A DNA stretch of 64,000 bases from Nitrospirota bacterium (GCA_963790025.1 CAWBMP010000005.1:224001-288000), one strand, 5' to 3'; positions 25,391 to 63,674 are shown, counted from the stretch's first letter. Notes: generated by a model from the sequence alone, not told the origin. Program-made: numbers and translations.

Positions 25391-25410
25391 GTGTACTATA
25401 TTTTGGCATC

Positions 25411-42013: not shown

Positions 42014-42079
42014 AAGCCCGGCAGCGGGTCAGTCTGTTTTTCCTCTGGATCACAAACAAACTGACCCACTGCCGGGCTT
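42014..42079. repeat. 66-bp REP-like hairpin
   Basis: AAGCCCGGCAGCGGGTCAGTCTGTTT / AAACAAACTGACCCACTGCCGGGCTT, 26-bp arms with 2 mismatches. Confidence 0.75.
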
Positions 42080-42107
42080 GACAGTGAACAATCGTTCACC
42101 TTATAAT
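42078..42107 (+). promoter_or_regulatory. Consensus sigma70 promoter enclosing a GAAC-N4-GTTC SOS box
   Basis: TTGACA (42078), 18 bp, TATAAT (42102); GTGAACAATCGTTCAC at 42084-42099. Confidence 0.85.
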
Positions 42108-42113
42108 GCAGAT

Positions 42114-42707
42114 ATGCCGGGAAATGCAGAGGAAGACAAGGTGCGGGGCAGGATCAGAGATATAGCTGTTTTCTTGGACAAAAACGGCAGGATGCCGAGT
42201 TTCTCTGAAATCGGGGTGATAGTAGGGCTGCGCTCAAAAAACGCGGTTTTTAAACTTGTGAACACGCTGGAACAAAAGGGAGTGATAAAAAGAGATCCCA
42301 AAGGGCGTCTCATACCACGCTCTATTGGTGAGCCGGTAAGGGTACTCGGCACGGTGGAAGCAGGGTTCCCGAGTCCTGCCGAAGAGGAGCTTGCAGATAC
42401 CCTGTCGCTCGATGCACTCCTGATACAAAACCCCCAGGCCACTTTTCTGCTCAAGGTATCCGGAGACTCCATGTCCGGGGCAGGCATACTCCCCGGCGAT
42501 ATGGTGATCGTTGATAAGGGACAGGTCCCCAGGAGTGGAGATATCGTTATTGCGGAAGTTGACGGCCAATGGACCATGAAGTATCTTAAAAAAAGGGGAG
42601 ACAACGTGAGCCTTATACCGGCAAATCCCGACTATAAACCCATAAAGCCAAAAAGTGAATTGAAAATAGCTGGTGTCGTAACAGCGGTAGTTAGAAAATA
42701 TAGGTAG
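42114..42707 (+). CDS. lexA: LexA-family repressor with UmuD-like S24 peptidase domain
   Basis: HTH PSFSEIG...SKNAV; AGFPSP cleavage site; GDSM catalytic Ser; TMKY catalytic Lys. Confidence 0.85.
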   Translation: MPGNAEEDKVRGRIRDIAVFLDKNGRMPSFSEIGVIVGLRSKNAVFKLVNTLEQKGVIKRDPKGRLIPRSIGEPVRVLGTVEAGFPSPAEEELADTLSLDALLIQNPQATFLLKVSGDSMSGAGILPGDMVIVDKGQVPRSGDIVIAEVDGQWTMKYLKKRGDNVSLIPANPDYKPIKPKSELKIAGVVTAVVRKYR

Positions 42708-42713
42708 ATAATG

Positions 42714-42893
42714 AGTGTAATGAGGATATGTCTCTTCCGCTCAGGCGCTGCGTCTTGACAGTTCTAACGGCTCATTCGCTACAGTCGCAAAACTCGCCTT
42801 CGGCTCAGACACTGCGACTGCTTAACGCTCATTTCGCCGAGAACTGTTACCAAGACTCCGCGATTCGCTCCAGAGACATATCCTCATTACACT
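42714..42893. mobile_element. 180-bp MITE-like fold-back element
   Basis: Perfect 22-bp TIR AGTGTAATGAGGATATGTCTCT; nested stems GTCTTG/CAAGAC, ACAGTTCT/AGAACTGT, CAGTCGCA/TGCGACTG. Confidence 0.8.
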
Positions 42894-42914
42894 GTCTGAA
42901 TTGGAGATAACGCG

Positions 42915-44231
42915 ATGAACCCTATAACAATACGTTCATGGCCGAGGGCAATTCTTCATCTGGATGCCGATGCTTTTTTTGCATCCTGTGAGCAGGCGAT
43001 ACATCCTGAACTTAAGGGAATGCCTGTAATCACCGGCAAAGAGCGCGGCATCGTTGCCGCAGCAAGTTACGAAGCAAAAAAGCGGGGAGTAACAAGAGCG
43101 ATGAGGCTCTTCGAGGTCAAGAAAGTCTGCCCTGATGCCGTTATCCTTCCAAGTGATTATGAGACCTACAGCCTGTTTTCTCTCAGGATGTTCGAAATAC
43201 TCAGACGCTTTTCTCCTGATGTCGAGGAATACTCAATAGACGAAGCATTTGTTGACCTTACGGGTCTCAGGAGGAGCTTTCATGGCCCTTATGAAATGAT
43301 TGCAAAACGGATGCAGGAGACTATCGAGACGGAACTGGGTATTACCGTATCGATCGGCGTAAGTCTCTCAAAGGTCCTGGCAAAGATAGGTTCGAAGCAC
43401 ATGAAACCCCACGGGTTGACCATGATACCGGGCAGGGATATCCACCTTTATCTATCCAAACTGCCGGTAGGAAGCGTATGGGGAATAGGGCCTAATACTG
43501 CGGCTTTCCTGGGGAAGTTTGGAATAATCACTGCCCTTCAGTTTGCGCGGGAGGACGAACAGTTCATTAAAAAGCACCTCTCCAAACCGTATCAGGAAAT
43601 ATGGCATGAACTCAATGGAAGAAGCGTTTATCCTGTTACCCCAGAATCAAAGCGCAGCTATCAATCCATAAGCAAGACAAAGACCTTCACCCCGCCTTCC
43701 TGCGACAAGACTTTTATCTTTGCCCAACTGTCAAAAAACCTGGAGAATGCCTGCATCAAGGCCAGACGTTACAAGTTGGCGGCGACGAGACTCATTATCT
43801 TTCTCAGGACACAGGAATTCAGGGACACCGGTATTGAAATGAAGTTGAGTTGCCCTTCAGCCTACCCATCCGACCTCTTCGGTTTATTAAAAGATGGATT
43901 TAACCATATCTACCGGTCAGGCAATTCTTGTAGTCCCTACCGGCAGACAGGCGTTGTCCTTGCCGGACTTGTCCGTGATGACAGCATACAGCACACGCTA
44001 TTCGATGATCCTGCAAGGATCGAGAAGATGGCCAGGATTTACAGCGCGGTCGATCAACTTTCTGAAAAGTTCGGGAAGTACACCGTCCATCATGCAGCAA
44101 GCCTGCCGACGAAACTGCAGGCACAGCATGAGGGACAACGGGGTGATGTGCCGCATAGGGCAATGGAACTGTTCAAGGGAGAAAACAAAAGGCAGAGGCT
44201 CGGGTTGCCGGTGCTGAACATAAAAGTTTGA
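42915..44231 (+). CDS. dinB: Y-family DNA polymerase (DinB/UmuC)
   Basis: HLDADAFFASCE, AASYEAK, YSIDEAF, LAKIGS...KP, VWGIG. Confidence 0.92.
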   Translation: MNPITIRSWPRAILHLDADAFFASCEQAIHPELKGMPVITGKERGIVAAASYEAKKRGVTRAMRLFEVKKVCPDAVILPSDYETYSLFSLRMFEILRRFSPDVEEYSIDEAFVDLTGLRRSFHGPYEMIAKRMQETIETELGITVSIGVSLSKVLAKIGSKHMKPHGLTMIPGRDIHLYLSKLPVGSVWGIGPNTAAFLGKFGIITALQFAREDEQFIKKHLSKPYQEIWHELNGRSVYPVTPESKRSYQSISKTKTFTPPSCDKTFIFAQLSKNLENACIKARRYKLAATRLIIFLRTQEFRDTGIEMKLSCPSAYPSDLFGLLKDGFNHIYRSGNSCSPYRQTGVVLAGLVRDDSIQHTLFDDPARIEKMARIYSAVDQLSEKFGKYTVHHAASLPTKLQAQHEGQRGDVPHRAMELFKGENKRQRLGLPVLNIKV

Positions 44232-44304: not shown

Positions 44305-46173
44305 ATGAGTAATAAACATAAGGATAAGCTTAGTGTTTTAGTTATCGGATCGCTCGGGGTTGTTTTCGGCGACCTTGGTACAAGCCCCTTATACACGTTG
44401 CGCGTCTGTTTTGGGGGTTTTTTTGCCATTGTCCCCTCTACGGAGAACGTATTAGGCATAGCCTCTCTTATTTTCTGGGCCTTGACCCTTGTCGTCAGTA
44501 TCAAATACTGCCTGTTCATTCTCCGTGCCGATGACGATGGCGAAGGCGGAATTTTTGCGATGCTGGGGCTGCTGCACAGCAAGATGGGGGCCAAGCTGAA
44601 TCGGAACATGATTTTATTTGCGTGTTTTGGCTCTGCACTGCTTTATGGCGATGGTCTTATCACCCCTGTCATATCCGTACTTTCTGCCCTGGAAGGACTG
44701 GAAGTGGCGACAACAAGGGCCAGGCCCCTGATTCTGCCCATGACCTGTTTCGTACTCTATTGGCTTTTCTTTCTGCAGCGCCATGGCACAGGACGTATCG
44801 GCAAATACTTCGGTCCGATCATTTGCTTATGGTTTGTCTCTATCGCTGCACTGGGAATCAACGCGATCATTGCCAGACCGGAGGTTCTTTCCGCGGTTAA
44901 TCCCGCTTACGCGGTCAGTTTTATGGTCAGAAATGGATGGCACGGATTTGTGGTCCTTGGAGCAGTGGTCCTGTGCATCACCGGCTGCGAAGCCCTGTAT
45001 CTCGACATGGGCCATTTTGGGAGAAAGGCTATTCGTATCTCATGGTATGGATTGGCACTGCCCGCCCTGTTATGTAATTATTTCGGCCAGGCCGCGCTGG
45101 TCCTTGCTGATCCGAGACAGATCGCAGACCCCTTTTATGGGTTGGTACCCGGCGCTTTGCTCTACCCGATGGTGGGTTTGGCCACGGCTGCTACGATCAT
45201 CGCTTCTCAGGCCATCGTTTCGGGTGTTTTTTCCATGACCAGGCAGGCCATGCAGTTAGGCTACATACCGCGCATGCGTGTCCTGCACACCTCTGAGATG
45301 GCCGAAGGCCAGATTTATATCCCTGTGGTGAATTTCATGATGCTCTGTGCTGCGATTTCGTTGGCCGTGGGATTTAAACAGTCAGAGAACCTGGCCGATG
45401 CTTATGGCATAGCTGTCACCGGTAACATGTTTATAACGTCCGCGCTCTTTTTTATTATCAGCAGGAAAATATGGGGGTGGAGTCTATGGAAAGCCTTGCC
45501 GCTCGTTTCGGTCTTTTGGGTGCTTGACGGTTCTTTCCTGAGCTCATGCCTGCTTAAGTTCCTGACCGGCGGCTGGTTCCCGGTGGGGACCGCACTTTGC
45601 ATAATGCTCCTGATGATAACGTGGCGGGATGGCTGGGACATTCTCGCGGAAAAGATATATGCCAAGCAGATGCGTATGGACAGTTTCGTGCAGATTGTCT
45701 CCGCTACCAAGCCTCTGCGTCTGCCAGGCACGGCCGTGTTTCTCTCCACATTTCAGACCGAAGTGCCGCCAATGCTCCAGTATCATCTGAACCATATAGG
45801 GGCCTTGCACGAGAAAGTCCTGATTCTGTCCATACTCACAATTGAGGTCCCCGAGGTCCCCGATGGGAAAAAGCTGGACATTCGAAATCTCGGTGAAGGC
45901 ATATACCGCGTGACTGCCCATACAGGATTCATGGAGACGCCTAACGTGCCTGATTTACTGGCCCTTGCCAGGTTCCATATCTGGGATATGGACCCGGCCA
46001 GCACCGTATATTATCTTGGAAAGATTTCACTGGTCCCCGGCAAACAAAAGGTCATGGACCCTGTCCGCAGGTTTTTATTCTTCTTTATGCAGCGCAATGC
46101 GCTGAGTCCGGTCGTGTACTACAGTATCCCGCCGGACCGGGTCCTGGAACTGGGCGTGCAGCTCGACTTTTAA
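44305..46173 (+). CDS. kup: KUP/HAK/KT potassium uptake transporter
   Basis: GVVFGDLGTSPLY, DGEGGIFA, GDGLITP, TGCEALYLDMGHFG, GQIYIP. Confidence 0.95.
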   Translation: MSNKHKDKLSVLVIGSLGVVFGDLGTSPLYTLRVCFGGFFAIVPSTENVLGIASLIFWALTLVVSIKYCLFILRADDDGEGGIFAMLGLLHSKMGAKLNRNMILFACFGSALLYGDGLITPVISVLSALEGLEVATTRARPLILPMTCFVLYWLFFLQRHGTGRIGKYFGPIICLWFVSIAALGINAIIARPEVLSAVNPAYAVSFMVRNGWHGFVVLGAVVLCITGCEALYLDMGHFGRKAIRISWYGLALPALLCNYFGQAALVLADPRQIADPFYGLVPGALLYPMVGLATAATIIASQAIVSGVFSMTRQAMQLGYIPRMRVLHTSEMAEGQIYIPVVNFMMLCAAISLAVGFKQSENLADAYGIAVTGNMFITSALFFIISRKIWGWSLWKALPLVSVFWVLDGSFLSSCLLKFLTGGWFPVGTALCIMLLMITWRDGWDILAEKIYAKQMRMDSFVQIVSATKPLRLPGTAVFLSTFQTEVPPMLQYHLNHIGALHEKVLILSILTIEVPEVPDGKKLDIRNLGEGIYRVTAHTGFMETPNVPDLLALARFHIWDMDPASTVYYLGKISLVPGKQKVMDPVRRFLFFFMQRNALSPVVYYSIPPDRVLELGVQLDF

Positions 46174-46183: not shown

Positions 46184-48784
46184 TTACAGTGTGTAATTAC
46201 TTTCCAGGAAACGGCCGGCATAATACTTGACCTTGGCATCATCGTGCAGGATCGCATCGAGTTGCCTTGTATAAGAAATCAACCGGCCCAGCTTGTCAAG
46301 TTTATTTTCCTGCTCAGAACGTTCTATATTGGCGAGCCTTCCAATAATCAGATCTCCCTTCGTTTTTATATTAAAACCGTACTCTTTCAAAATAATAGAA
46401 ATAAGCTCTATCCTCCTGGACCTTTTTACGATTTCGGTAGCTCCTCCGGCAAACCGGAAGTATATATGATTGTTTCTTGCCTTTTCGCTGCAATAGCAAT
46501 CTATTGTGCTGAAATGATATCCGAACTTGAGATTCATGTTGAGGTATTCCTGGGAGATAACGGCAATATTGCTTCCTGGATACCTGGCGTTACCTGAAGC
46601 AATATCAGGCATTCGCATCATGCTTGCCATAAAATCGTTTGCCGTCAAAGCAACCGGTGATGATTGCCATGCCCCCGGGTACATCATCCCCTGTAGAATA
46701 GCTTTAAAGGGAATTGAAACAACCTGTTCGAAAGTAACGCTTTCGCTCCTGTCATAGTGACCCGCGCTGCTATCCAACCCTCCGCCGATATCCACTACGA
46801 TTATTCCGGCAGGTATAGGCAGGTCCAATTTCCTTGCCGCTTGTCCTTTGAGTCCCCGCACGGCATTGTCTATGAGTTCCATCACTGCTTTCTCATGTAT
46901 GAACCTCAGGATATCATGCATGGTCTTACACCCTTCAGGCGCAAACTTTTCCATTAACGGGTCAATGAGATTAAGAGGAGTTATATACCTCAGCACATAT
47001 CTTTTCTTGCGAAATTCAAAGATATTTCCCATTGCCGGTTGGCCGGAGCGCGCGTATTCAACCATTTCGCGCAGTATCCCGTCATATACAGTCATACCAT
47101 CTTCATCATCAATAATTACCGTAACCTCTTGTCCGTGCCTAAGCAGCTGTGTTGCGTTTCCAGAATTAACAAAAGCCGGGACCATGAATTCACGACAAAG
47201 GGAAGACATGTGGCTTGTAAGCGACCCCGTATCGGTAATAATTGCGGACGCATAAGGCATGATCCGTATAAAATCAGAGGAATCATTTTTTGCCACAAGG
47301 ATGTCGCCCTTTAAAAAGCCCTCGATTCCTTCCTTGTGTTTAAATATAAAAACCCTGCCGGCGCCCACACCTTTTTGAACAACCTGACTACGCGCTTTCA
47401 TCAGGATTCCGGCCCTTTCTTCCGGCCATTCCGGAGAAAGGGCCGGTGCAGGGGTCTTGTCAACAGATGCAATATTTAATGGCCTCGCCTGAAGTATAAA
47501 TATTTTCCCTTCCCTGTCAATGGCCCATTCAATATCCTGAGGTTGCCGGAAATAGTTTTCAATTTCCGAGGCCTGTCTCGCAAGTTCCGATACCTGTTCC
47601 GAAGATAATGAACTTTCATCAACCATCCCGGCAGGGACCCCCGTTATGGTTGTACCACCCTGGTTGCCGCCCACGACCATCGAGGTCTTTTTACCCGGTC
47701 TTTTATCTATTATTTCAGGGAACAAACCTTTTCTTACAACGTAAAAGTCCGCATCTGTCCGGCCTTCAACTACTGACGTGCCCAGTCCCCATGTTGAATT
47801 TACAATGATCGTACCTTCATCCCCATTCGGGTTCGTCGAATAAATAACCCCGCTCACAGCCGCATCGACCATGACCATGCAACCAACCGCCATCTTTATG
47901 CTTCCTATCTCACTTCCCAGTTGCTGAAGATATGCAGCGGCTTTATCCGAAAACAGGCTTGCGATGACGCGCTTATACGCGTCCTGTACTGCACTGCCGT
48001 CCAAAGGCACATTCAGGACAGTTTCAAACTGTCCGGCAAACGAAAATTCGCCGTCCTCCAGCTGACCGCTGCTCCTGACAGCAAGAAAACATGTATTTCC
48101 GTGGGTCGCCCTGAGCACTGACAGGGCACTATCAAGAACGTGTTCAAGGACAGGCGGAAAACTGCCGTTAATGATCGAAGTGTATATTTCATTTAATAAC
48201 GGCGCAGGCGTGTCGCTTCCGCCCAATGCCGAAATCTTTTTGTCGATGCCATTATGCCTTATAAACTCATTGTAAGCGGAGCATGTTATGGCAAAGGCAT
48301 CAGGGATGTTGAGGGAAGTATTATTTTTCAGTTCAGCGAGATTGGCATTTTTGCCGCCGACCTCATGCGCCATGCTATGGGCAAGCTCACTATAAGGCAG
48401 CACCAATTCCCTTCTCAAGACTTCCTCATCGTAAACATGCAGCCTGATTTCTTTATCGATGGCACTCAATACATTTTTGAGATGAGGATACTTATTCTGT
48501 GTGAGGGCATTGAAGCTTGAGAGAGAATCCGAGAGCTTATCATACAGCAAGGAGTAGGTGTCCCTTATATAAATCACATCGAATATGTAGTCGCCCCCGA
48601 GTTTGTCGCCCATATCAGCGATAATCTCAATCGCCTTATTATGGGATTCGAGGACCTGCCGGAAACGGTCGAACATGACCTTGAACGGGATAGGGCGGGC
48701 GGGGAATAGTTTCCGTAGTGAATCTGTAAATGAGTGTATTAGCGAATGAGTTAACTTCAGGTCAGCGTTTTGTTTCTCACTCAT
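46184..48784 (-). CDS. PEP-synthase/PPDK-like protein (ATP-grasp plus phospho-His domain, non-canonical C-terminus)
   Basis: VGGKNANL, AVRSS...ED..SFAGQF, PQDIEWA, LQARP, GSLTSHM; no pyruvate-binding barrel recognised. Confidence 0.85.
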   Translation of the reverse strand: MSEKQNADLKLTHSLIHSFTDSLRKLFPARPIPFKVMFDRFRQVLESHNKAIEIIADMGDKLGGDYIFDVIYIRDTYSLLYDKLSDSLSSFNALTQNKYPHLKNVLSAIDKEIRLHVYDEEVLRRELVLPYSELAHSMAHEVGGKNANLAELKNNTSLNIPDAFAITCSAYNEFIRHNGIDKKISALGGSDTPAPLLNEIYTSIINGSFPPVLEHVLDSALSVLRATHGNTCFLAVRSSGQLEDGEFSFAGQFETVLNVPLDGSAVQDAYKRVIASLFSDKAAAYLQQLGSEIGSIKMAVGCMVMVDAAVSGVIYSTNPNGDEGTIIVNSTWGLGTSVVEGRTDADFYVVRKGLFPEIIDKRPGKKTSMVVGGNQGGTTITGVPAGMVDESSLSSEQVSELARQASEIENYFRQPQDIEWAIDREGKIFILQARPLNIASVDKTPAPALSPEWPEERAGILMKARSQVVQKGVGAGRVFIFKHKEGIEGFLKGDILVAKNDSSDFIRIMPYASAIITDTGSLTSHMSSLCREFMVPAFVNSGNATQLLRHGQEVTVIIDDEDGMTVYDGILREMVEYARSGQPAMGNIFEFRKKRYVLRYITPLNLIDPLMEKFAPEGCKTMHDILRFIHEKAVMELIDNAVRGLKGQAARKLDLPIPAGIIVVDIGGGLDSSAGHYDRSESVTFEQVVSIPFKAILQGMMYPGAWQSSPVALTANDFMASMMRMPDIASGNARYPGSNIAVISQEYLNMNLKFGYHFSTIDCYCSEKARNNHIYFRFAGGATEIVKRSRRIELISIILKEYGFNIKTKGDLIIGRLANIERSEQENKLDKLGRLISYTRQLDAILHDDAKVKYYAGRFLESNYTL

Positions 48785-48840
48785 TTACCCGTTCACCCAT
48801 TTACCCGTTCACCCATTTACCCATTCACTCATTAACTCAT
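48718..48840. repeat. Octamer-periodic inverted repeat overlapping the dikinase start
   Basis: About 7 tandem TTYACCCR-type units at 48777-48840 and complementary degenerate units at 48718-48756. Confidence 0.75.
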
Positions 48841-49202
48841 CAGCTCAGGGCGCGCTGTATCGATGCCTTCAGTTCTTTTATCTTTACCGGCTTTGGGAAA
48901 AAATCGTGGACGTCTCCCCTCAATGCCTCTATGGCGGTATCAAGGTTTGCAAATGCAGTAATCATTATAACCTTAATGTCAGGGTAAAGACGTTTTATGG
49001 TCCTCAGAATTTCCATACCGTCTATCCCCTTCATTTTAAAGTCGGTAACTACCACATCGAACTTCTGTTCGCCTAATCGCGCCAGTGCCGGCTCTCCATT
49101 TAAAAAAGTCTCGACTGTATAGCCTTCCTGTTCAAGAGAGAGCTTCGCCATGTCGCCAACAATTTTCTCGTCATCGATAATCATGATTCTGTGATTGCTC
49201 AT
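48840..49202 (-). CDS. Stand-alone response regulator receiver protein
   Basis: IIDDE, VTDFKM (phospho-Asp), ITAF, KP. Confidence 0.92.
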   Translation of the reverse strand: MSNHRIMIIDDEKIVGDMAKLSLEQEGYTVETFLNGEPALARLGEQKFDVVVTDFKMKGIDGMEILRTIKRLYPDIKVIMITAFANLDTAIEALRGDVHDFFPKPVKIKELKASIQRALS

Positions 49203-49270
49203 TTGGTCCTCCTCTAATGCGTCGAGCGTTGTGCTGAGAGCATCAAACGACTTTCGACGGCAGTTGGCGC

Positions 49271-50689
49271 TTAACGCTCAGCGCTCGACGCCTGACACTC
49301 TTTATGTACAGGCAATTCTATAGTAAAGGTGGTGCCTACTCCAACTTTGCTTTCCACCCTGATATCTCCCTGATGGTTCTTGATGATTCCGTAGCTGACC
49401 GAGAGCCCGAGGCCTGTTCCGCCTTCTCCTTTTGTGCTGAAAAAAGGGTCGAATATATGAAGCAGAAATTCGGAAGGTATGCCTTTTCCGGTATCCATCA
49501 CCGTAATCTCCACGGACCCTCCGGCGCTTCCGCATCTGGTCGACATAAAAAGCTTCCCGCCATCATGCATGGCCTGGACTGCATTGGTCACAAGATTTAC
49601 CAGCACCTGCTGTATCTGGTACTGATCAATAAATACATGTGGAAGGTCCTCGGCAAGGGTCAGTTTTGTCTCGATGTTTGAGATGTCGAGCATATTTTGC
49701 ACAAGTTTGAGCGTTTTTTGAACAACTTTATTGATGTCGCTCTCTTTCAGGTTCGCCTCTTTGGGTTTTGAGAAATCGAGGAGGTTTTTTATGATCTCTT
49801 TTATCCTTTCGGTTTCATTCTCCACCTTGGCCATGAATTCAATCCTCTGAGTCTCATCCAGACTATCGTAAAGTTCCATATAGGTCTGTGCTATCATGGA
49901 AATGTTATTCACCGGATTAGTCAATTCGTGTGCCACCCCGGCGGTCAGGATGCCCAGGGATGCAAGCTTTTTTGCCTGGATCAGCGCTTCTTCACGGTTC
50001 TGCAGTTCGTAAGACATGGCATTTATTGCAGCCATAACCAGACCGAATTCATCATCGGGAAGCGCACTCTCGATTCTGCTGAAATTCCCGTCGGATATCG
50101 ATTTTGCGATTTTCTCGATTTCTCTTAGTGAGACGCGAATTTGCCGCGATATAAAATGGCTCACAAAAACAGCGCCTATAAGCACCGCGCAAAAAGAGAA
50201 AATAAGTATGCTCTTCGATTTCGATATGATTTTGTTTACGCCTTCCCGCTCAAGGCGGGTAGTGGCGCTCGAAAATTCCCGCAGCCTCTGGCCTTCCGCC
50301 CTGAATTTTGCGTCAAGAGAGGTATCGCCATGAGGGTTTTTTTCCTCTTCTTCCACAAGATCGGAATAATTTTTCAGGTCTGATTTAAGCTTTGCAAAGT
50401 TCTCTGCCCCGATAGCACGGATGATATCCGGCCTCTCACTCTCCAGAAGCAGCCCGGCGCTCTCTATTTTTTCTTTAATGTCGAGAAGAAAACTTTCTTT
50501 ATGATAAAGGAAATAGTTTTTTTCGGAAAGGCGCATTTCGAGAAAAGATGCATTCAGATCGTCCGCTATCTCAACAAATCTCAGCTTCGTCAAAATGAGA
50601 TTGAGGTTCTGCAAGGCAAAAAGACCGATCCCTAAAATCAGCCCGAAAATGAATATATTGGTAAGTATGTTTTTATTTTTTATCTTCAT
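49271..50689 (-). CDS. Membrane sensor histidine kinase (two TM, HAMP, HisKA, HATPase)
   Basis: GVAHELTNP, NLVTNAVQA, DTGKGI, FDPFFSTK, GTGLGL. Confidence 0.93.
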   Translation of the reverse strand: MKIKNKNILTNIFIFGLILGIGLFALQNLNLILTKLRFVEIADDLNASFLEMRLSEKNYFLYHKESFLLDIKEKIESAGLLLESERPDIIRAIGAENFAKLKSDLKNYSDLVEEEEKNPHGDTSLDAKFRAEGQRLREFSSATTRLEREGVNKIISKSKSILIFSFCAVLIGAVFVSHFISRQIRVSLREIEKIAKSISDGNFSRIESALPDDEFGLVMAAINAMSYELQNREEALIQAKKLASLGILTAGVAHELTNPVNNISMIAQTYMELYDSLDETQRIEFMAKVENETERIKEIIKNLLDFSKPKEANLKESDINKVVQKTLKLVQNMLDISNIETKLTLAEDLPHVFIDQYQIQQVLVNLVTNAVQAMHDGGKLFMSTRCGSAGGSVEITVMDTGKGIPSEFLLHIFDPFFSTKGEGGTGLGLSVSYGIIKNHQGDIRVESKVGVGTTFTIELPVHKECQASSAER

Positions 50690-50743
50690 ATCTTCGAAAA
50701 ACCTCTATCTTTCCCTCTGCCTGTCTTATCTCTTTTACCTGTC

Positions 50744-51949
50744 TTATTGTGGTACAGGGCAGCGTGGGATTTCTGCCTGCTCCTTTCTTACCGGCATATA
50801 CCACAGCCAGCCGTCCACTATCATCAGTATACCTGCAGCAATTAAAAAAGCGTCGATGGCTGTCAGAATGCTGAAGCCGAAATAGTGCATGAGACCCAAC
50901 CCCAGGCTGGCAAAGGAAACTCCGGTCCTGATAAAGGCGAGTCCGGTCCTCGCCCTGGCATATAAAGTACGATAGCATGCGGCAACTGTACGTTGTGCGG
51001 CCAGAACGTTTCTTTCCCGCGCAAGATGGGTCCGTTCCCTGCTGGAAGGCGACGGATACAAAATAGTGCAGTGATCCGCAAGAAAATCGCCGAGACGGGC
51101 AAGCATAGTCTGCCCTGCCGGCAGATGAGTTCCGGGTTGGTCAATAAAATGATAGTTCTCAAGAAACTGGATCGTTGCCGCCGTTACTTCGACAAGCGTC
51201 TGGTCTCCGGGCGGCTTCATCCTTGACTTCCTTATTTTCAAATAACCGGTCAACCCGAAAAGAGCAAGAAAAAACCCTCCGGCCATAACACCATATAAAT
51301 AAAAAACACGACTCGATTTAAAAGAACGAATCAGTATATCAGATACAGCAATAAGCCGCAATCCCCATCTGAGGAAAGAAAAGTCAGTCCTGGCCATTGC
51401 CAGGTCGGTCCTGTAGCACGCCAGCCGCGTCCTCCATTGCGCCATAGTATTGCGCCAAAATGCAAGTCCTGTCCTTTCGGTCCCGATAAGATAACCTGGT
51501 TTTTCATGCAGAAAGTCCTGGATGAACCATTGTATGTCCTCTCCAAGCGCCACCCAGAATTCATATTTTTCAGCTTTAATAAACTTTTTTACCTCATCAT
51601 GCACTGTGGGGTCTGACGGATTATTCGCAGCCACAACCACCGTATTGCCGTCTCTAATGATCGGAAACCACTGATTTATCGACAGTCGTTCACCATCCAA
51701 ACCTGCGAGCAGTTCCGGCGGTATCGGCATTCGCTCATCATATTCCACAAAAGGGCACTGGTAATAATTTGAAAGTGCCTGCAGCAGAATATGCTTTGGG
51801 ATGCGATACTCCGCGATAAGTACACTTTCCAGATCGATACCTCTGGCGGAAGCGGCACGCTCGGCTTCACAAAGTCTGTCCCGGGTCAGTACGCCCCAAC
51901 TGATCAGGTCATTAAACTTATTGGAAGCGATACTATCAACGCTCATCAT
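50744..51949 (-). CDS. MshEN-like domain plus two DUF202-like membrane modules
   Basis: N-terminal LISWGVLT...L...CPFVEY...WFP; two ERTxLAxxR heptad runs, each followed by a TM hairpin; start overlaps the upstream stop. Confidence 0.72.
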   Translation of the reverse strand: MMSVDSIASNKFNDLISWGVLTRDRLCEAERAASARGIDLESVLIAEYRIPKHILLQALSNYYQCPFVEYDERMPIPPELLAGLDGERLSINQWFPIIRDGNTVVVAANNPSDPTVHDEVKKFIKAEKYEFWVALGEDIQWFIQDFLHEKPGYLIGTERTGLAFWRNTMAQWRTRLACYRTDLAMARTDFSFLRWGLRLIAVSDILIRSFKSSRVFYLYGVMAGGFFLALFGLTGYLKIRKSRMKPPGDQTLVEVTAATIQFLENYHFIDQPGTHLPAGQTMLARLGDFLADHCTILYPSPSSRERTHLARERNVLAAQRTVAACYRTLYARARTGLAFIRTGVSFASLGLGLMHYFGFSILTAIDAFLIAAGILMIVDGWLWYMPVRKEQAEIPRCPVPQ

Positions 51950-53642
51950 TACTGAAGACCACCTTTTTCCACGAACGGGCCGGTATGCCGTAATCAGGGA
52001 TAATAAGCTCCATCTGTCCATAACAATACGGGTACTGCTTTCTTATTTTTTCTGCCGGAAAATGCCAGTAAAACCCATCGGCAATCAGTGTCAATCCAAC
52101 CACTATCAGCAACATGTTAAATATAGACCATGCAGCATTGCCCGCACCAAAGAAAACCATGAGTTCCATGCCGACGGCAGTTATGCCTACTCCTGTTCTG
52201 ATAAAAGCCAGTCCGGTCCTTGACCGTGCCATTACTGTCCGCAGTCGCGCCATCACATTTCTCCGGTCGGCGAGCATGGTCCTTTCGAGAGCAAGCCCTG
52301 TAGTAGCCCATATACCCGGTGCATGGGACGGCCTGACAGGCGGAACACACTTGTAATCCGAAGCGGGATGTTTTAACGCCGGAGGAAAAACAAAATCCCA
52401 AATAGTCTGTTTAGTCTGCGTATTCCTGACTGCATTAAAACTTATAGAACCGGCACGGCGGCCCGGGAGATACCAGTAAAAACCCTCTGCAGCCATGGCA
52501 ATACCGCTAATAATAAGAGCGACATCAAAGAAAGTCCACGGTCCTGGACGGAACTGACGCAATAACCCAATACCGAATCCTATAAAGGCAACACCTGTCC
52601 TCGAAAAAGCCAATCCGGTGCGCGCCCTTGCCATTTTTGTTCTGTAGCATGCCAGCACAGTCCTCTCCTCGGCAAAGTCCGTTCTATCGCTGGCAAGGAA
52701 CCTGCGTCTCATAACCGGGGAGAGGTTGTTCCAGTACGAACGCAGGACTGCCGCATCTTGCACATAGCCGGTACGTTCAAAGAGAGGATTGTCACCAGGA
52801 TTCACGACTTTAAGAACAGTGGTCCCCCATGTCGCTTCAGTACCTCCGAAATCATATAATTTTCTCCCTGATTTTCGGGTAGGGATATACCACCGCAGGC
52901 CGTCGACGGTCATAACCACGCCTGAAATGAACAGTGCCGCTTCAAATACCGTTAATAGCCCTATACCTAAAATTCTGAAAAGCACGATAGCGACCGCCAT
53001 AAAAGATATCCCGGTCCGGAGAAAGGCCAGTCCGGTCCTTCCTTTTGCCAGGGACGTTCTGGTACATGCCAGCAAAGAGCGCCTGTCCGCCAGAAATGTT
53101 CTCACTTTTGCAAGGGGCGTCCTGCCTGCCGCTGGGGGGAAATGAGGATTGACATCAAAGTTGTGTTCTATGATCCTTACAACGTCTGAAGGCAGAGCAA
53201 TAACGAAATGGATATTCTCAACTCGAAGTTTATCTTTAATGTCCTGAATTACATCAGGGTCGGAAGGATCATATACAATCACTTCGGCCTGCATTCCCCC
53301 GACGTAATAGGGAAACCAGAGTTTGCGTTTCAGGTCCTCCATATTCAGACGCATGGTAATAAAATAGGAAGACAAGCCGCTCTCATCATATTCTATAAAA
53401 GGGAAATCGAGATGCCTGGTGAATGCCATCCGGGAAGGTATCACAGTCTCGTCGTATTCGACAAAAGGACACATGTAAAATTCGGAAAGGCAGAACAATA
53501 TCTCGTGTTTGGGAACTCCCTTTTCAATCAAACATTCCTCAGGATACTTTCCCGCAGCAAATGAATCCCTTATGCAGTTATCCAGTTCATTTTCGGTGAG
53601 GATGCCTCTTCTTATAAGCCGTTCAAATTTATTGTTTAACAT
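51936..53642 (-). CDS. MshEN-like domain plus three DUF202-like membrane modules
   Basis: LIRRGILTENEL; three RTxLAxx heptad runs ending RTG plus TM hairpins; close paralogue of 53731-55374. Confidence 0.75.
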   Translation of the reverse strand: MLNNKFERLIRRGILTENELDNCIRDSFAAGKYPEECLIEKGVPKHEILFCLSEFYMCPFVEYDETVIPSRMAFTRHLDFPFIEYDESGLSSYFITMRLNMEDLKRKLWFPYYVGGMQAEVIVYDPSDPDVIQDIKDKLRVENIHFVIALPSDVVRIIEHNFDVNPHFPPAAGRTPLAKVRTFLADRRSLLACTRTSLAKGRTGLAFLRTGISFMAVAIVLFRILGIGLLTVFEAALFISGVVMTVDGLRWYIPTRKSGRKLYDFGGTEATWGTTVLKVVNPGDNPLFERTGYVQDAAVLRSYWNNLSPVMRRRFLASDRTDFAEERTVLACYRTKMARARTGLAFSRTGVAFIGFGIGLLRQFRPGPWTFFDVALIISGIAMAAEGFYWYLPGRRAGSISFNAVRNTQTKQTIWDFVFPPALKHPASDYKCVPPVRPSHAPGIWATTGLALERTMLADRRNVMARLRTVMARSRTGLAFIRTGVGITAVGMELMVFFGAGNAAWSIFNMLLIVVGLTLIADGFYWHFPAEKIRKQYPYCYGQMELIIPDYGIPARSWKKVVFSNDER

Positions 53643-53730
53643 AGTATATAAAGCCCAGAAACTTCATTATTATAAATTATAGCCATATTAATAATAAAAT
53701 TTTTTCTCTTCCGGGCAAGGCTCCATATTT

Positions 53731-55374
53731 TTAGCCGCTCTCATCGGTCCTGAACACCACCTTTTTCCATAAACGGGCCGGTTTGCCATAATCAGGTATT
53801 ATAAGTTCCATGTCTCCATAGCAGTAGGGGTACTGCTTTCTTATTTTCTCGGCTGGGATGTGCCAATAGAAACCATCAGCAATAAGAGCCAATCCAACCA
53901 CTATCAATAATATGTTGAATATCGTCCACGCGATATTGCCGGCACCGAAATAAACAAGGAGTTCCGTTCCTACCGCAGATACGCCTACCCCGGTTCTGAC
54001 CAGCGCCAGACCGGTCCTTGACCGGGTCATTACCGTTCGCAGCCTTAACATTACGTTTCTCCTGTCGGCAAGCATAGTCCTCTCAAGAGCAAGGCCCGTA
54101 GTAGCCCAGATCCCCGGCTCACTGGACGGCCTGACGTTCAGAACGCACTTGTAGTCAGAACCTGGTTGCTTTAGCGCATGAGGAAAGGCAAGGTCCCATA
54201 TATTCTGTTTACCCTCTGATTTGCGGACCGACTTGAAGCTCATCGAACCGGCACGGCGGCCCGGAAAATACCAGTAAAAGCCCTCTGCCGCCATTGCGAG
54301 GCCCACAGCGACAAGCGCTGCATCAAAAAAAGTCCAGGGACCGGGACGGAACTGGCGTAATAGCGCAATGCCGAACCCGATAAAGACAATTCCAGTCCTT
54401 GCAAATGCCAACCCTGTGCGCGCCCTCGCCATTGTTGTCCATAAGCACACGTGCGTCGTCCTTTCCTCGGCAAAATCGGTCCTGTCGCTCGAAAAAAACC
54501 TGCGCCGCATTACCGGAGACAGATTGTTCCATCGGGAACGCAACAACGCCGCACCTTCCACGTGACCTGTTCGTGTAAAAAGAGGGTCGTCACCGGGGTC
54601 CGTCATTTTAAGGACAGTAGTTCCCCAAGTCGGTTCAGTTGCAGTAAAATCAAAAACTCTTCTCCCTGTTTTTCGTGCGGGGATATACCATAAAAGGCCG
54701 TCATAAATCATGAGTATGCCCGAAATGAACAATGCCCCTTCAAAAAAAACCGAAAGCCCCATACCGAAAACCCTGAAAAGAACAACCGCGATGGCCATAA
54801 AAGCCATACCGGTGCGTATAAAGGCCAGTCCGGTCCTCCCTTTTGCCAGGGACGTCCTGGTACAAGTCATCAAAGAGCGCCTGTCAGCCAGAAATGTCCT
54901 CACTTTCGCCAGAGGCGTCCTGCCGGCTGAGAATGGGAAATGAGGATTCACATCAAAGTTGTGTTCGATAATCCGAATAAGGTCCGAAGGCAGAGCAACA
55001 ATAAAATTGACCTCCCGAACTCCAAGTGTGGCTTCGACATCCTCCATGACATCAGGGTCGAAAGGATGACACGCAATAACCTCGGCACGGCCTTTGCTGA
55101 CGGCGAGAGGAAACCAGAGATTTCGTTTGAGTTTCTCCATATTGAGACGCCTGGTGAGAAAAAAAGAGGCGATGACGCTCTCATCATATTCGACAAAAGG
55201 ACAACTATAGAACTCAGTCAGCGAGAACAATATCTCGTGTTTCGGGACACCCCTTTCAATCAGCCATTCTTCAAGAAGCCTACCTGCCGCTGCGGACTCT
55301 CTGATATTTTCATCCAATTCCTTTTCGGTGAGAATACCATTTTTTAAAAGTCTCTCGAATTTGTTTTTTAACAT
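53731..55374 (-). CDS. MshEN-like domain plus three DUF202-like membrane modules
   Basis: LLKNGILTEKEL; three heptad runs plus TM hairpins; no ATPase motifs. Confidence 0.75.
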   Translation of the reverse strand: MLKNKFERLLKNGILTEKELDENIRESAAAGRLLEEWLIERGVPKHEILFSLTEFYSCPFVEYDESVIASFFLTRRLNMEKLKRNLWFPLAVSKGRAEVIACHPFDPDVMEDVEATLGVREVNFIVALPSDLIRIIEHNFDVNPHFPFSAGRTPLAKVRTFLADRRSLMTCTRTSLAKGRTGLAFIRTGMAFMAIAVVLFRVFGMGLSVFFEGALFISGILMIYDGLLWYIPARKTGRRVFDFTATEPTWGTTVLKMTDPGDDPLFTRTGHVEGAALLRSRWNNLSPVMRRRFFSSDRTDFAEERTTHVCLWTTMARARTGLAFARTGIVFIGFGIALLRQFRPGPWTFFDAALVAVGLAMAAEGFYWYFPGRRAGSMSFKSVRKSEGKQNIWDLAFPHALKQPGSDYKCVLNVRPSSEPGIWATTGLALERTMLADRRNVMLRLRTVMTRSRTGLALVRTGVGVSAVGTELLVYFGAGNIAWTIFNILLIVVGLALIADGFYWHIPAEKIRKQYPYCYGDMELIIPDYGKPARLWKKVVFRTDESG

Positions 55375-55512
55375 AATAATTAATGATTAATGATAATTAA
55401 TGCGTCAGGCAGCGCGCGTTGAATGTCGCGCGCTGCGGTACTTGACAACAACCTGTAATATGTTTTATACAAATTATATAGTTTAAGAGCTTAATAAAGA
55501 AAATTGATATAT

Positions 55513-55911
55513 ATGGATTTTAGCAAAAAACGTATTTTTTGTCTGCTTTTCCTCGCCTGCTTCATTATTTATGCGTTATCAACCGCTGTCTGTTATATTT
55601 ACAGCGGCAAGACCGTTGTACCTGTTCCCCTTCCCTGCAGTTTTGCCAGGAAGTTTGTCGGCCATGGGACCGTCAATCCGTTTGAAAAAAACAACCGCGG
55701 CGTTGACATTATTGTGCACATTGTGCGAACTCTTGTTCCGGAAGACAGCATTGCAAAATTATCGTATTTAAAAAAGACACCTGTGTCCAAAAGCTGTTTT
55801 TCGATGCGTTCAATGCAGTCTTCTTTTTATTCTGGAATTTCACCATTTGGGAAAGTCCCGGCCACCGGTTTCCGGTTCTTATGTTCGGGACTCTCTCCTC
55901 CATCAGTTTAG
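55513..55911 (+). CDS. Hypothetical protein with N-terminal TM/signal and C-terminal SGLSPP
   Basis: Basic N-terminus plus hydrophobic helix; co-oriented upstream of HtrA. Confidence 0.55.
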   Translation: MDFSKKRIFCLLFLACFIIYALSTAVCYIYSGKTVVPVPLPCSFARKFVGHGTVNPFEKNNRGVDIIVHIVRTLVPEDSIAKLSYLKKTPVSKSCFSMRSMQSSFYSGISPFGKVPATGFRFLCSGLSPPSV

Positions 55912-56069: not shown

Positions 56070-57533
56070 ATGTGCAGATCAAAAAAAGATATGACTAAGA
56101 TGTGTCCGACTGTGCTTGTCGTATGGGCGACCGTTGCGGCGGTCCTGTGTTTTCAGGTGAATACATACGCGGACGGACCGGCAATATCGCGGCAATCCAT
56201 TGACTTGCTTTCGAGAGAGAGCCATGCCAGGGCGGAAGTGGCCGCTGCCGTGAAGCCCGCAGTTGTGAATGTCTCGACTACGAAGACCGTGAAATCGGGG
56301 CAGACGATCAATCCTTTTCTGAACGACCCATTCTTCAGACAGTTCTTCGGCAACGGGCCTTTCGAGCATCCAAAGGAGCACAAGCAGGCGAGTCTCGGCT
56401 CGGGCGTCATTGTGGATGCCGACGGATATATATTGACGAATAATCATGTGATAAAGGACGCTGACCAGATAAAAATAAAACTTGCGGATAAGCGGGAATT
56501 CAACGGCAGGGTCATAGGGACTGACCCTAAAACCGACCTTGCCGTGGTCAAGATTAATGCGACGCATCTTCCTTTCCTGAAGTGGGGTGACTCGGACAAA
56601 CTGGAGGTTGGCGATACCGTACTGGCAGTCGGCAATCCTTACGGTCTGAACCAGACGGTAACGTCCGGGATTGTCAGCGCGACGGGCAGGGCCAATGTCG
56701 GCATAGCTGATTACGAAGACTTCATACAGACAGACGCGCCTATTAATCCCGGGAATTCAGGGGGCGCTCTGGTCAATGTGAGGGGCGAACTCGTCGGGAT
56801 CAACACCGCCATATTCAGTACATCCGGCGGCTACCAGGGGATTGGATTTGCGATCCCGGGAAGCATGGCAAAAGTAGTGATGAGAGGTCTGATCAGGAAC
56901 GGAAAGATTGTCAGGGGATGGTTGGGTGTCTCCATTCAGGCTGTTACCCCTGAACTGGCCGGGCAGTTCGGACTTAAGGATGAAAAAGGCGCGCTCGTAG
57001 CTGATATTGCAGAGAAAAGCCCGGCAGAAATGGCTGGAATTAAGCGGGCGGACTTGATCATTAAATATGACGGGAAAGAGGTGAGCGACCCGTCGAACCT
57101 GAGAAATATGGTTGCAAGCACTCCCCCGAACAAAGACGTTGCGATACAGCTTATCCGGGCAGGCAAGGTCCTGACGGTGAGGGCCGTGATTCTTGAGATG
57201 CCGGCTGAGATGCAAAAACCCTTGCAGTCATCCTCTGCTGCGTCCAATAACGTTTTCAAAGGAGTCCAGGTACAGGATATCACGCCTGAATTAAGGAAGG
57301 AGCTTAATATCCCGAACCGGATAACCGGCGTAATCGTCTCGGACGCGCAAGAAGGAAGCCTTGCGGGAAATGTCCTGATGCGCAAAGATATCATCCTTGA
57401 AATCAACAGGAACAGGATAGAGAGCGTCAGGGATTACGAGGCAATGGCATCGAAGATCGAACACGGCCGGAATGTTCTCTTACTGGTTTACAGGAACGGG
57501 TCAACTTTTTATGTTGCCTTGCCTGCAAAATAA
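56070..57533 (+). CDS. Do/DegP-family HtrA serine endoprotease with two PDZ domains
   Basis: TNNHV, DLAV, QTDAPINPGNSGG; GAGGAGG RBS; signal peptide. Confidence 0.93.
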   Translation: MCRSKKDMTKMCPTVLVVWATVAAVLCFQVNTYADGPAISRQSIDLLSRESHARAEVAAAVKPAVVNVSTTKTVKSGQTINPFLNDPFFRQFFGNGPFEHPKEHKQASLGSGVIVDADGYILTNNHVIKDADQIKIKLADKREFNGRVIGTDPKTDLAVVKINATHLPFLKWGDSDKLEVGDTVLAVGNPYGLNQTVTSGIVSATGRANVGIADYEDFIQTDAPINPGNSGGALVNVRGELVGINTAIFSTSGGYQGIGFAIPGSMAKVVMRGLIRNGKIVRGWLGVSIQAVTPELAGQFGLKDEKGALVADIAEKSPAEMAGIKRADLIIKYDGKEVSDPSNLRNMVASTPPNKDVAIQLIRAGKVLTVRAVILEMPAEMQKPLQSSSAASNNVFKGVQVQDITPELRKELNIPNRITGVIVSDAQEGSLAGNVLMRKDIILEINRNRIESVRDYEAMASKIEHGRNVLLLVYRNGSTFYVALPAK

Positions 57534-62556: not shown

Positions 62557-63674
62557 TGCAGAGAAAAGTATATGTTGCTGATGATGTCTCTATAAATATA
62601 GAGCTTGTAGAGTCCGTTTTCAGAAATGATCCCGACCTTTTGATAAGAAAGGCCGAGAACGGACAGGAACTCATGGCATGTATTGAAAGCCACGGCTTTC
62701 CCGACCTCCTCATCCTCGATCTGATGATGCCGGTAATGGACGGCTTCGATGTGCTAAGGAATTTGAAGAAGGCGAGGGAGGCGAGATACTTTCCTGTTAT
62801 AGTCCTTTCCGCGCTGTCCGACAAGCAGAGCATTGTCAAGGCCCTGTCCATGGGGGCGGACGACTATGTTACCAAACCGTTCTTTGTCGAGGAACTAAAG
62901 GCGCGGGTCAGCAATATGCTGAAGCTGAAGGAGAGGGATGAATATTTAAATACGTCGCTTGATGTAATGGAATCAAATCTCATCGAGAAGTTGCAGATGC
63001 TCGAGAGCACCCAATTGGAAGTTATTATCAAATTGGGCACGGCTGCTGAATTCAGGGATGATGAGACCGGAAGGCATATTGAGCGTATTGCTGCTTACGT
63101 TGACTTAATAAGCGATAAAATGAGCGTGAACCGCGAACTGCGTATCATGATGCAATACGCCGCTCCCATGCATGATGTCGGCAAAATAGGCATTCCGGAC
63201 GCGGTGCTCATGAAGCCGGGGAAACTCACCAGCGAGGAATTTAACATAATAAAGCTCCATACGCTGATCGGCGGCAAAATTTTGAGCGGAACAAACCTTC
63301 CGCTGCTTGAACTTGCGAAGGAAATAGCCATTACCCATCACGAACGTTGGGACGGGTCCGGCTATCCTTTGGGTCTTAAAGGTAATGATATACCTGTATC
63401 GGGCAGGGTGGTTGCCGTCACGGATGTTTTTGACGCGATTACCTCGGAAAGGGTGTACAAATCAGCATGGCCTATTGAAAGGGCGCTGGAATATATAAAT
63501 GATATGAGGGGTAAACAGTTCGATCCCGATGTCATCGATGCCTTTTTTGCAATAGAGACTGAAATAATAGAGGTGAGAAAGGTAAAAAAAGATCTGCCTG
63601 TGGCCAAACCTATGATTCATCAAATTATAGATGGCGATATCAGTTTTGAACAACTGATTCAGCAATGGAGATAA
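62556..63674 (+). CDS. Response regulator with HD-GYP c-di-GMP phosphodiesterase domain
   Basis: Receiver (ADD, LDLMMP, KP) plus HDVGKIG and HHERWDGSGYP. Confidence 0.92.
   Translation: MQRKVYVADDVSINIELVESVFRNDPDLLIRKAENGQELMACIESHGFPDLLILDLMMPVMDGFDVLRNLKKAREARYFPVIVLSALSDKQSIVKALSMGADDYVTKPFFVEELKARVSNMLKLKERDEYLNTSLDVMESNLIEKLQMLESTQLEVIIKLGTAAEFRDDETGRHIERIAAYVDLISDKMSVNRELRIMMQYAAPMHDVGKIGIPDAVLMKPGKLTSEEFNIIKLHTLIGGKILSGTNLPLLELAKEIAITHHERWDGSGYPLGLKGNDIPVSGRVVAVTDVFDAITSERVYKSAWPIERALEYINDMRGKQFDPDVIDAFFAIETEIIEVRKVKKDLPVAKPMIHQIIDGDISFEQLIQQWR

Follow-up and report, generated by a model that had tools for sequence, protein, structure and literature searches.

To our knowledge, no bacterial protein of the DUF202 family has an established function, and the only characterised members of this membrane family form a polyphosphate channel in eukaryotes. 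The Vtc subunits of this channel are annotated as DUF202 and have three transmembrane (TM) helices each (PMC7283521). In the passages cited here, VTC is described as a 3:1:1 pentamer of DUF202 subunits, in which the polyphosphate pore is lined by five TM1 helices bearing two lysine/arginine rings 7 residues apart; the pairs K24/R31, K622/R629 and K698/R705 each show this 7-residue spacing, and mutating the ring residues abolishes polyphosphate storage (PMC9911596; bioRxiv 10.1101/2023.01.27.525886). The DUF202 protein YidH arose in a D-alanine exporter screen and, in the cited part of that work, was not confirmed in transport assays (PMC10299036). Here we analyze a stretch of 64,000 nucleotides (nt) from Nitrospirota bacterium (GCA_963790025.1 CAWBMP010000005.1:224001-288000), hereafter the window, in which a cluster of six genes at 46184-55374 encodes three membrane proteins with DUF202-like modules, a sensor histidine kinase, a single-domain response regulator and an enzyme resembling phosphoenolpyruvate (PEP) synthase. 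Comparison with its relatives shows that this cluster is the local form, enlarged by a duplication, of a conserved five-gene module found in anaerobic Nitrospirota (Thermodesulfovibrionia, Dissulfurispiraceae) and Desulfobacterota. An earlier description of the window drawn from its sequence alone (the sequence-only reading) had described DUF202 as the membrane domain of VTC that forms a cationic polyphosphate channel, with which the cited papers agree, and the modules described below carry invariant arginines in a heptad register.

A conserved pair of three- and two-module membrane proteins

Calling of open reading frames (ORFs) shows that six minus-strand genes, all in the same orientation, fill the cluster:

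53731-55374, minus strand: gene A, three-module membrane protein, 547 amino acids (aa), from ORF, Pfam, AlphaFold2 and Foldseek analysis.
51936-53642, minus strand: gene B, paralogue of A with the same architecture, 568 aa, from ORF, Pfam and alignment.
50744-51949, minus strand: gene C, MshEN/GSPII-like domain and two modules, 401 aa, from Pfam, inspection of the start and ribosome-binding site, and alignment.
49271-50689, minus strand: sensor histidine kinase, 472 aa, Pfam HAMP, HisKA and HATPase_c.
48840-49202, minus strand: single-domain response regulator, 120 aa, Pfam Response_reg only.
46184-48784, minus strand: PEP-synthase-like (dikinase-like) enzyme, 866 aa, Pfam PPDK_N and PEP-utilizers.

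The gaps calculated from these coordinates, in order from gene A to the dikinase-like gene, are 88, -14, 54, 68 and 55 nt. Both the ORFs and Pfam confirm the arrangement proposed in the sequence-only reading, namely three co-oriented paralogues followed by genes for a HAMP kinase, a lone receiver and a PEP-synthase-like protein, and the gaps of under 90 nt that it gave are borne out, the largest being 88 nt. The longest ORF of gene C spans 50744-52021; its true start is most likely the ATG at 51949, because an AGGTGG sequence lies 11 nt upstream, and this choice yields the 401-aa product and an overlap of 14 nt with the end of gene B.

To place the membrane proteins among their relatives, a word-indexed protein search was used, which scored 8000 candidates and returned 1078 of them at E<=1e-3. 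Among the 120 matches listed, DUF202 is present in all 120 and MshEN as well in 118; those that are named come from metagenome-assembled genomes of Nitrospirota, Thermodesulfovibrionales, Dissulfurispiraceae and Desulfobacteraceae and are labelled hypothetical, 'DUF202 domain-containing' or 'YidH'. Grouped at 50%, the matches make up 339 clusters at E<=1e-3, a number that drops to 44 at E<=1e-30, and on contigs representing one genome per species the relatives are encoded at 435 loci. With 435 loci and 1078 matching proteins, the architecture is therefore not a product of chance. An Atlas search with the membrane part of A returned DUF202 clusters only, one of them automatically named 'DUF202/MshEN domain-containing protein'.

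The locus counts that follow rest on the best 80 of the 435 loci. A two-module gene directly follows the three-module gene in 78 of these 80, and the contigs of the other two stop at that point, while two three-module genes occur in just four (L001, L002, L003 and L070), which are the closest relatives of the window. By this comparison, the conserved unit is one three-module gene and one two-module gene, five modules in all, and the pair A/B is a recent local duplication; what is conserved is a 3+2 pair and not the 3+3+2 set seen in the window. The three proteins of the window show 74% identity between A and B, and 34-36% between A or B and C (protein alignment). With heuristic start choices, an overlap of 4-17 nt between the three- and two-module genes is seen in 62 of 76 loci, which suggests that their translation is coupled. 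Maximum-likelihood analysis sorts the modules by position into five separate groups of 29 sequences (supports 97/58, 100/99, 100/99, 100/99 and 99/92); these positions are old and non-interchangeable.

Arginine heptads and the two-helix module

Hidden Markov model searches with Pfam uphold the assignment of both MshEN and DUF202. Gene A matches MshEN at 1.8e-11 and DUF202 at 1.7e-8 (two stretches, 35.2 bits), gene B matches DUF202 at 3.8e-15 (three stretches, 56.5 bits) and MshEN at 2.2e-7, and gene C matches MshEN at 2.1e-11 and DUF202 at 4.9e-4, where its 20.9 bits alone fall below the gathering cutoff of 23.4 bits for DUF202 (PF02656) that A and B exceed; despite this score, the two modules of C align with those of A and B. 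A Pfam match to the T2SSE ATPase domain (PF00437) was found in none of A, B and C. The module count of 3+3+2 was obtained by hydropathy and motif scan, by an alignment of the eight modules and from the AlphaFold2 model of A, so that the description of three MshEN paralogues lacking an ATPase and carrying 3+3+2 DUF202-like modules is confirmed by Pfam, hydropathy, alignment and structure prediction. The modules and one further feature of gene B are located as follows:

54655-54933, minus strand: A module 1, residues 148-240, Arg 152/159/166/173/180/187, followed by TM1 and TM2.
54241-54516, minus strand: A module 2, residues 287-378, Arg 291/298/305/312/319/326.
53827-54114, minus strand: A module 3, residues 421-516, Arg 432/439/446/453/460.
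About 52857-53135, 52443-52718 and 52029-52316, minus strand: the three B modules, placed by a 22-residue offset from A.
51218-51490 and 50786-51049, minus strand: C modules C1 and C2, respectively.
53382-53471, minus strand: B-specific insertion of 22 codons that repeats the PF(V/I)EYDE stretch of the MshEN domain (protein alignment), also visible in the DNA as direct repeat family D5, with copies 66 nt apart.

Each module comprises about 90 residues, in which six RTxLAxx heptads run without interruption into the first hydrophobic helix and a loop of 4-7 residues leads to the second, which ends in (D/E)GxxWYxP. The first helix of a module is about 50 residues long, with its six arginines at an exact 7-residue spacing up to the membrane segment. 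The AlphaFold2 model of A, built on a 67-sequence alignment (predicted local distance difference test, pLDDT, 83.3; predicted template modelling score, pTM, 0.74), places the long helices at residues 152-203, 287-341 and 424-476 and the second helices at 208-237, 348-388 and 481-514, so that each module is modelled as a two-helix hairpin.

Two alignments of the family, with 22 and 67 members, show nearly all arginine positions of A to be invariant. An alignment of 145 modules (five positions from 29 genomes) gives arginine in columns 5, 12, 19, 26, 33 and 40 in 115/144, 144/144, 145/145, 144/145, 145/145 and 143/145 modules, respectively; alanine at +4, threonine at +1 and leucine or methionine at +3 are likewise conserved, the residues at c, f and g vary, and conserved acidic and basic residues also lie within both membrane helices. 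The conserved L-R-A-T face covers roughly 160 degrees of the helix, which would suit a helix packed between two others in a barrel of several helices better than one in a simple two- or three-stranded coiled coil. Because no signal peptide is present and by the positive-inside rule, the N-terminal domain, the arginine helices and the inter-module linkers are predicted to be cytoplasmic, leaving periplasmic loops of just 4-7 residues. Other relatives of the family include stand-alone single modules of 108-128 aa; together with the heptad arrays considered below, these indicate that the two-helix RT-heptad module is presumably a self-associating unit.

Two-component pair and dikinase-like enzyme

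The histidine kinase has two hydrophobic segments around a helical region of about 130 aa, followed by HAMP, HisKA and HATPase_c (Pfam); its residues 1-175 match no Pfam family, and its NCBIfam matches cover the catalytic core only and stay below all cutoffs. The receiver matches Response_reg at 3.6e-29 and contains D10, D11, D54, T82 and K104, as read from its sequence. The two genes are consistent with a two-component pair: a kinase with HisKA and HATPase_c and a receiver with the phospho-acceptor aspartate D54. Where the contig extends 4600 nt or more past gene C (58 loci), the kinase is found in 50, the receiver in 50, the dikinase-like gene in 43 and all three in 42, so that the co-occurrence of these genes with the membrane genes, on which the sequence-only reading depended, holds for 42 of 58 loci. 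In one relative, P0179, a single RT-heptad module is fused to a receiver at its C-terminal end, which shares 47% identity over 115 residues with the receiver of the window (pairwise E 3e-33); no other observation argues as strongly for a direct action of the lone receiver on the membrane protein.

In many relatives, additional co-oriented genes that are absent from the window stand directly upstream of the three-module gene. They encode a 165-aa uncharacterised protein (29 loci), TauE/SafE, an anion permease (40), Alph_Pro_TM, which is TIGR02186 (38), tandem Usp (36) and single Usp (30), as exemplified by L004:5752-9342. A sigma-54 activator occurs downstream in 28 loci, in L004 after a Tll0287-like kinase.

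The dikinase-like enzyme matches PPDK_N (PF01326) at 1.4e-76 and PEP-utilizers (PF00391) at 5.3e-16, and its layout is as follows:

N-terminal region: about 125 aa, conserved.
Residues 141-440: PPDK_N ATP-grasp domain.
Residues 492-556: mobile phospho-histidine domain.
Residues 565-866: C-terminal domain.

All 42 orthologues compared have the catalytic histidine of the mobile domain (H525, in TSH), and many arginine, histidine and aspartate residues among the C-terminal 300 are likewise invariant in them. Matches in the PDB cover residues 124-591 only and comprise the PEP synthases 2ols, 8a8e and 9dae and entries of rifampin-phosphotransferase type deposited as PEP synthase. For the C-terminal domain, no Pfam family was found at E<=10; its AlphaFold2 model (pLDDT 73.8, pTM 0.71) shows a mixed alpha/beta fold with no Foldseek match in the PDB at E<=1e-3 (best 8.9e-3, with template modelling (TM) scores of 0.23-0.38). 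The domain is shared by 713 proteins, labelled generically as pyruvate, water dikinase or PEP-utilizing enzyme, and in the Atlas it occurs only in uncharacterised or 'PEP-utilizing enzyme family' clusters; one homologue is named 'phosphoenolpyruvate synthase [Dissulfurispira thermophila]' by its source. Identity as PEP synthase was considered and ruled out by the missing TIM barrel match and by a score of 317 bits for NCBIfam NF005057 (PEP synthase), below its cutoff of 598; no equivalog cutoff was reached. The proposal of a PEP-synthase-like dikinase therefore stands for the ATP-grasp and phospho-histidine domains and falls for the PEP/pyruvate TIM-barrel domain, which was not found. By its domains, the protein is a phospho-histidine enzyme with an acceptor domain that has no known relative. 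Two tandem dikinase-like copies were observed at L020:15191-20474 and L046:4944-10227, the second copy being about 30% identical to the enzyme of the window.

A candidate arginine-lined conduit

The interpretation we tentatively favor, with limited confidence, is that the cluster encodes a heteromeric, two-component-regulated, VTC-like conduit lined by arginines, for an oxyanion or polyanion. A three-module protein (A or B) and a two-module protein (C) would form a 1:1 heteromer with five non-equivalent modules, whose arginine helices would bundle like the five TM1 helices of VTC and place stacked arginine rings from a cytoplasmic vestibule into the membrane. Such a tube would conduct or bind a phosphate-type oxyanion or a polyanion, and the MshEN/GSPII-fold domains, having lost their c-di-GMP site, would serve for docking. 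The kinase would phosphorylate the lone receiver, which would then act directly on the membrane complex and regulate the conduit, and the dikinase-like enzyme would form a phospho-histidine with ATP and hand the phosphoryl group to an anionic acceptor at its Arg/His-rich C-terminal domain. Of the elements of this scheme, the domains, heptads, pairing, synteny and receiver fusion are shown by the data. The analogy with VTC is our ground for inferring the heteromer, the packing of its modules as a pentamer, conduction through it, the nature of the substrate and what the enzyme does.

A more far-reaching version, which we regard as rather improbable, would make the system a bacterial counterpart of VTC built from different parts: stacked arginine rings would make a pseudo-pentameric (3+2) tube through which a polyanion, phosphate-based or another linear one, would cross the inner membrane. 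Phosphorylation of this polymer or of its primer would be the task of the phospho-histidine (dikinase-type) enzyme with its novel acceptor domain, and gating of the tube that of the phosphorylated receiver, which would dock to the degenerate GSPII domains.

Several observations weigh against a conduit of the VTC type. VTC subunits have three helices, against two per module here, and Pfam detects no polyphosphate enzyme (TTM/CYTH or PPK) in the cluster or in the rest of the window. A profile of the 145 modules finds no VTC chain among PDB sequences at E<=10, and the 46 best Foldseek matches listed for A (ranks to 50) include no VTC entry either. A fused five-module protein was not found among proteins of 959-2735 aa, which is weak evidence. 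In 16 of the 58 loci with sufficient flank, the set of kinase, receiver and dikinase-like genes is incomplete, and five of these (L012, L018, L044, L067 and L071) keep the membrane pair with none of the three, as does L009, which has a shorter flank past gene C. Finally, in P0205, P0226, P0229 and P0243 a single module stands behind 15-25 consecutive RT-heptads, an arginine-at-core array of unusual length whose appearance suggests an extended coiled-coil stalk rather than the wall of a pore. Strong Foldseek matches of the model of A are confined to its N-terminal domain. Two weak similarities were set aside in these searches: the sole PDB match of the module profile is a TetR protein at E 0.26, a chance hit, and the Foldseek matches of the membrane part of A to ABC-exporter domains (TM scores 0.1-0.18, root-mean-square deviation about 20 Å) are taken as meaningless.

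The heptad arrays, far longer than a membrane pore would need, speak instead for a non-conducting, membrane-anchored signaling or scaffold complex, the main alternative, in which our confidence is only slightly lower. Here the RT-heptads would form coiled-coil stalks with a transmitting or positioning role, and the GSPII-like domains would recruit the receiver or the dikinase-like enzyme, whose activity or location would be controlled in response to a membrane or envelope cue. Such a role agrees with the receiver fusion in P0179, with the docking of proteins by GSPII/N1E-type domains in the PilB-PilZ and XpsE structures matched by Foldseek, and with the position of the pair in related loci among genes for Usp stress proteins, a second kinase and a sigma-54 activator. 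It accounts less well for the arginine at a core heptad position, whose invariance over five module types and two phyla would be unusual for a plain structural coiled coil and which matches the pore-lining positions of VTC, or for the conserved acidic and basic residues inside both membrane helices.

N-terminal domains and c-di-GMP

In the conduit as in the scaffold, the N-terminal domains would act by docking, and this assignment depends on their relation to cyclic di-GMP (c-di-GMP) receptors. The domain of A lies as follows:

54952-55374, minus strand: N-terminal MshEN/GSPII-like domain of A, about residues 1-141, with a degenerate c-di-GMP motif.

Residues 7-130 of A match the c-di-GMP-binding GSPII-B domain of Thermus PilF (6f8l) at 9.5e-7 (phmmer against the PDB), and in Foldseek the model of A matches PilF GSPII-B (8pdk, 3.6e-5) and MshE (5htl, 2.7e-4, TM score 0.74), the TM scores of these matches being 0.65-0.74 when normalised to the target; PilB-N and XpsE-N are matched as well. 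From sequence and model together, the GSPII fold can be regarded as secure.

The c-di-GMP-binding MshEN element consists of two tandem 24-residue motifs of the form RLGxx(L/V/I)(L/V/I)xxG(L/V/I)(L/V/I)xxxxLxxxLxxQ (cited passages of PMC5013675). In its strict form or in the relaxed form of its authors, this motif is found in 0/67 three-module and 0/66 two-module proteins (133 checked). In place of the glycine at position 3, motif I has a conserved phenylalanine and motif II a conserved glutamate, and the first 55 residues are wholly missing in some distant family members. For the GSPII-A domain of PilF, small deviations from the motif are described, in the part cited here, as abolishing c-di-GMP binding (PMC12002112). 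Because the motif is absent, the glycine replaced and the first 55 residues missing in some members, and given the GSPII-A precedent, the N-terminal domains are probably docking or regulatory modules that have lost the c-di-GMP site. Of the earlier proposal, the MshEN assignment is retained on the evidence of Pfam, the PDB and Foldseek, and c-di-GMP binding is not, the motif being absent from both sets of proteins.

Under a c-di-GMP receptor model, the N-terminal domains would bind the nucleotide in the manner of MshE or PilF GSPII-B and thereby switch the membrane part. The best PDB matches in sequence and fold are indeed c-di-GMP-bound GSPII-B and MshEN domains, a weak NCBIfam match to a c-di-GMP motif model exists (17.8 bits against a cutoff of 38), and a REC-HD-GYP protein is encoded 7 kilobases (kb) away. 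The absence of even the relaxed motif in all 133 proteins, with the loss of the position-3 glycine, nevertheless makes c-di-GMP gating a weak reading, and the distant members without the first 55 residues and the non-binding precedent of PilF GSPII-A (PMC12002112) point the same way; we therefore consider it very unlikely. The REC-HD-GYP gene itself (62556-63674, plus strand; receiver and Pfam HD_5) likely encodes a c-di-GMP phosphodiesterase and lies directly 3' of a copper-type P-type ATPase gene (60106-62556).

Still less probable is an ion-driven machine of 5:2 type, resembling the ExbB/MotA/TolQ stators, in which five modules with long cytoplasmic helices would surround a central partner. 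The five modules of the conserved pair, the long helices that run from the membrane into the cytoplasm and the conserved Asp/Glu and Arg residues of the membrane helices would fit such a machine, against which stand the lack of a conserved single-pass partner gene of ExbD/MotB type in the cluster and the lack of any MotA/ExbB family match in Pfam, Foldseek or the Atlas. A remnant or accessory of type II secretion or type IV pili, with ATPase-less GspE/PilB N-domains tethered to the membrane, is barely credible: although the MshEN domain is present and its nearest relatives outside the family are GAF-MshEN-T2SSE ATPases, no pilus or secretion genes occur in the window or among the conserved neighbours of the 80 loci, and the architecture is stable across two phyla.

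Genomic context of the cluster

On one side, the cluster is flanked by a convergent gene for a Kup potassium transporter (44305-46173), and on the other by a divergent small ORF and a divergent HtrA/DegP protease gene (56070-57533). The small ORF (55504-55911, plus strand, 135 aa), which is divergent from gene A, has a hydrophobic N-terminus and matches no Pfam or NCBIfam family; weak homologues adjoin the three-module gene in L002, L058 and L061 and lie about 5 kb off in L034. The ORF could be noise or else encode a genuine small protein, membrane-bound or secreted. A sigma-54 promoter pattern gave 36 matches against 34.6 expected, none of them upstream of gene A on the minus strand; a scan for sigma-70 promoters and terminators gave nothing decisive, and Rfam finds no family in the 64-kb window.

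The protease gene is one of two HtrA/DegP-type paralogues (Trypsin_2 and PDZ) within 22 kb, at 34357-35802 and 56070-57533, both on the plus strand. Just upstream of Kup, the region 42078-44231 (plus strand) encodes a Y-family DNA polymerase (IMS) behind a LexA-like repressor (Peptidase_S24 and LexA DNA-binding domain), and looks like an SOS mutagenesis cassette. A mobile-element patch occupies 25381-27574, with an IS200-like Y1 transposase ORF at 25381-26331 and a GC content down to 0.45 at 24-26 kb. It also contains an IS110-family transposase as two overlapping ORFs, 26843-27574 (DEDD domain) and 26376-26846 (Transposase_20), and this division suggests a frameshift. The regions 1-24667 and 28071-28415 carry a cytochrome b/c fusion, a complex I (Nuo) operon, a DsrC-like protein and a pentose-phosphate operon (transketolase, transaldolase, RpiB, G6PD and 6PGL), which by their annotation are housekeeping genes of a sulfur-metabolising anaerobe.

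Novelty and significance

The sequence-only reading knew of no characterised protein with an MshEN-DUF202 architecture, and our literature search agrees: none of the papers searched names MshEN and DUF202 together, and no paper was found on this architecture, including under DUF202/YidH, T2SSE_N and GSPII. The architecture is already visible to automatic annotation, as the Atlas cluster name cited above illustrates. What is new is the concatenated, regulated form of DUF202/VTC-like membrane modules, and the chance that this amounts to a categorically new thing is modest.

The operon offers a first functional handle on bacterial DUF202, in that its modules are tied to a dedicated two-component system and to an ATP-dependent phosphotransfer enzyme, and it makes the existence of VTC-like conduits for anions or polyanions in bacteria directly testable. 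The RTxLAxx heptad, which puts arginine at a core position and recurs up to about 25 times in relatives, is a striking sequence device. The GSPII/MshEN fold is found here in a new use, outside secretion ATPases and without its c-di-GMP motif, and the dikinase-like branch is new in having an acceptor domain without known relative. The hosts are sulfur-cycling anaerobes, and since Dissulfurispira thermophila is in culture, its dikinase-like homologue opens a route to experiments.

Comparison with known systems

With the c-di-GMP receptors MshE and PilF GSPII-B, the membrane proteins of the cluster have the N-terminal fold in common, and the Pfam MshEN match is above cutoff. In MshE, PilB and GspE, a T2SSE ATPase follows this domain, whereas none is found downstream of it here. 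The nearer likeness is to the non-binding GSPII-A domain of PilF, since both 24-residue motifs are degenerate.

The dikinase-like enzyme resembles PEP synthase and pyruvate phosphate dikinase in its PPDK_N ATP-grasp domain and its swivelling phospho-histidine domain with the catalytic histidine. It differs from PEP synthase at both ends, with an additional conserved N-terminal region of 125 residues and with 300 residues unmatched in Pfam in place of the C-terminal PEP/pyruvate TIM barrel. Rifampin phosphotransferase and PigC/RedH, in which the ATP-grasp and phospho-histidine domains are alike, are relatives with swapped acceptor domains.

YidH belongs to the same Pfam family, and JGI names many homologues of the window's proteins 'uncharacterized membrane protein YidH (DUF202 family)'. 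YidH is small and single-domain, whereas in the cluster the modules are multiplied, the heptads extended and a GSPII-like domain placed in front.

The VTC complex differs in having five separate subunits where the modules of the cluster are concatenated in two chains, and two basic rings where six arginine heptads form a long cytoplasmic extension; it also contains a TTM/CYTH polymerase and SPX domains, neither of which Pfam detects in the six genes or the window. The two systems are alike in belonging to the same Pfam family, in the (E)RTxLAxxRT motif that opens the first membrane helix, with basic residues 7 apart, and in the tie to a phosphotransfer enzyme. Both are also made of five non-identical units, as 3:1:1 subunits in VTC and as 3+2 modules here, a count that would be consistent with a pentamer.

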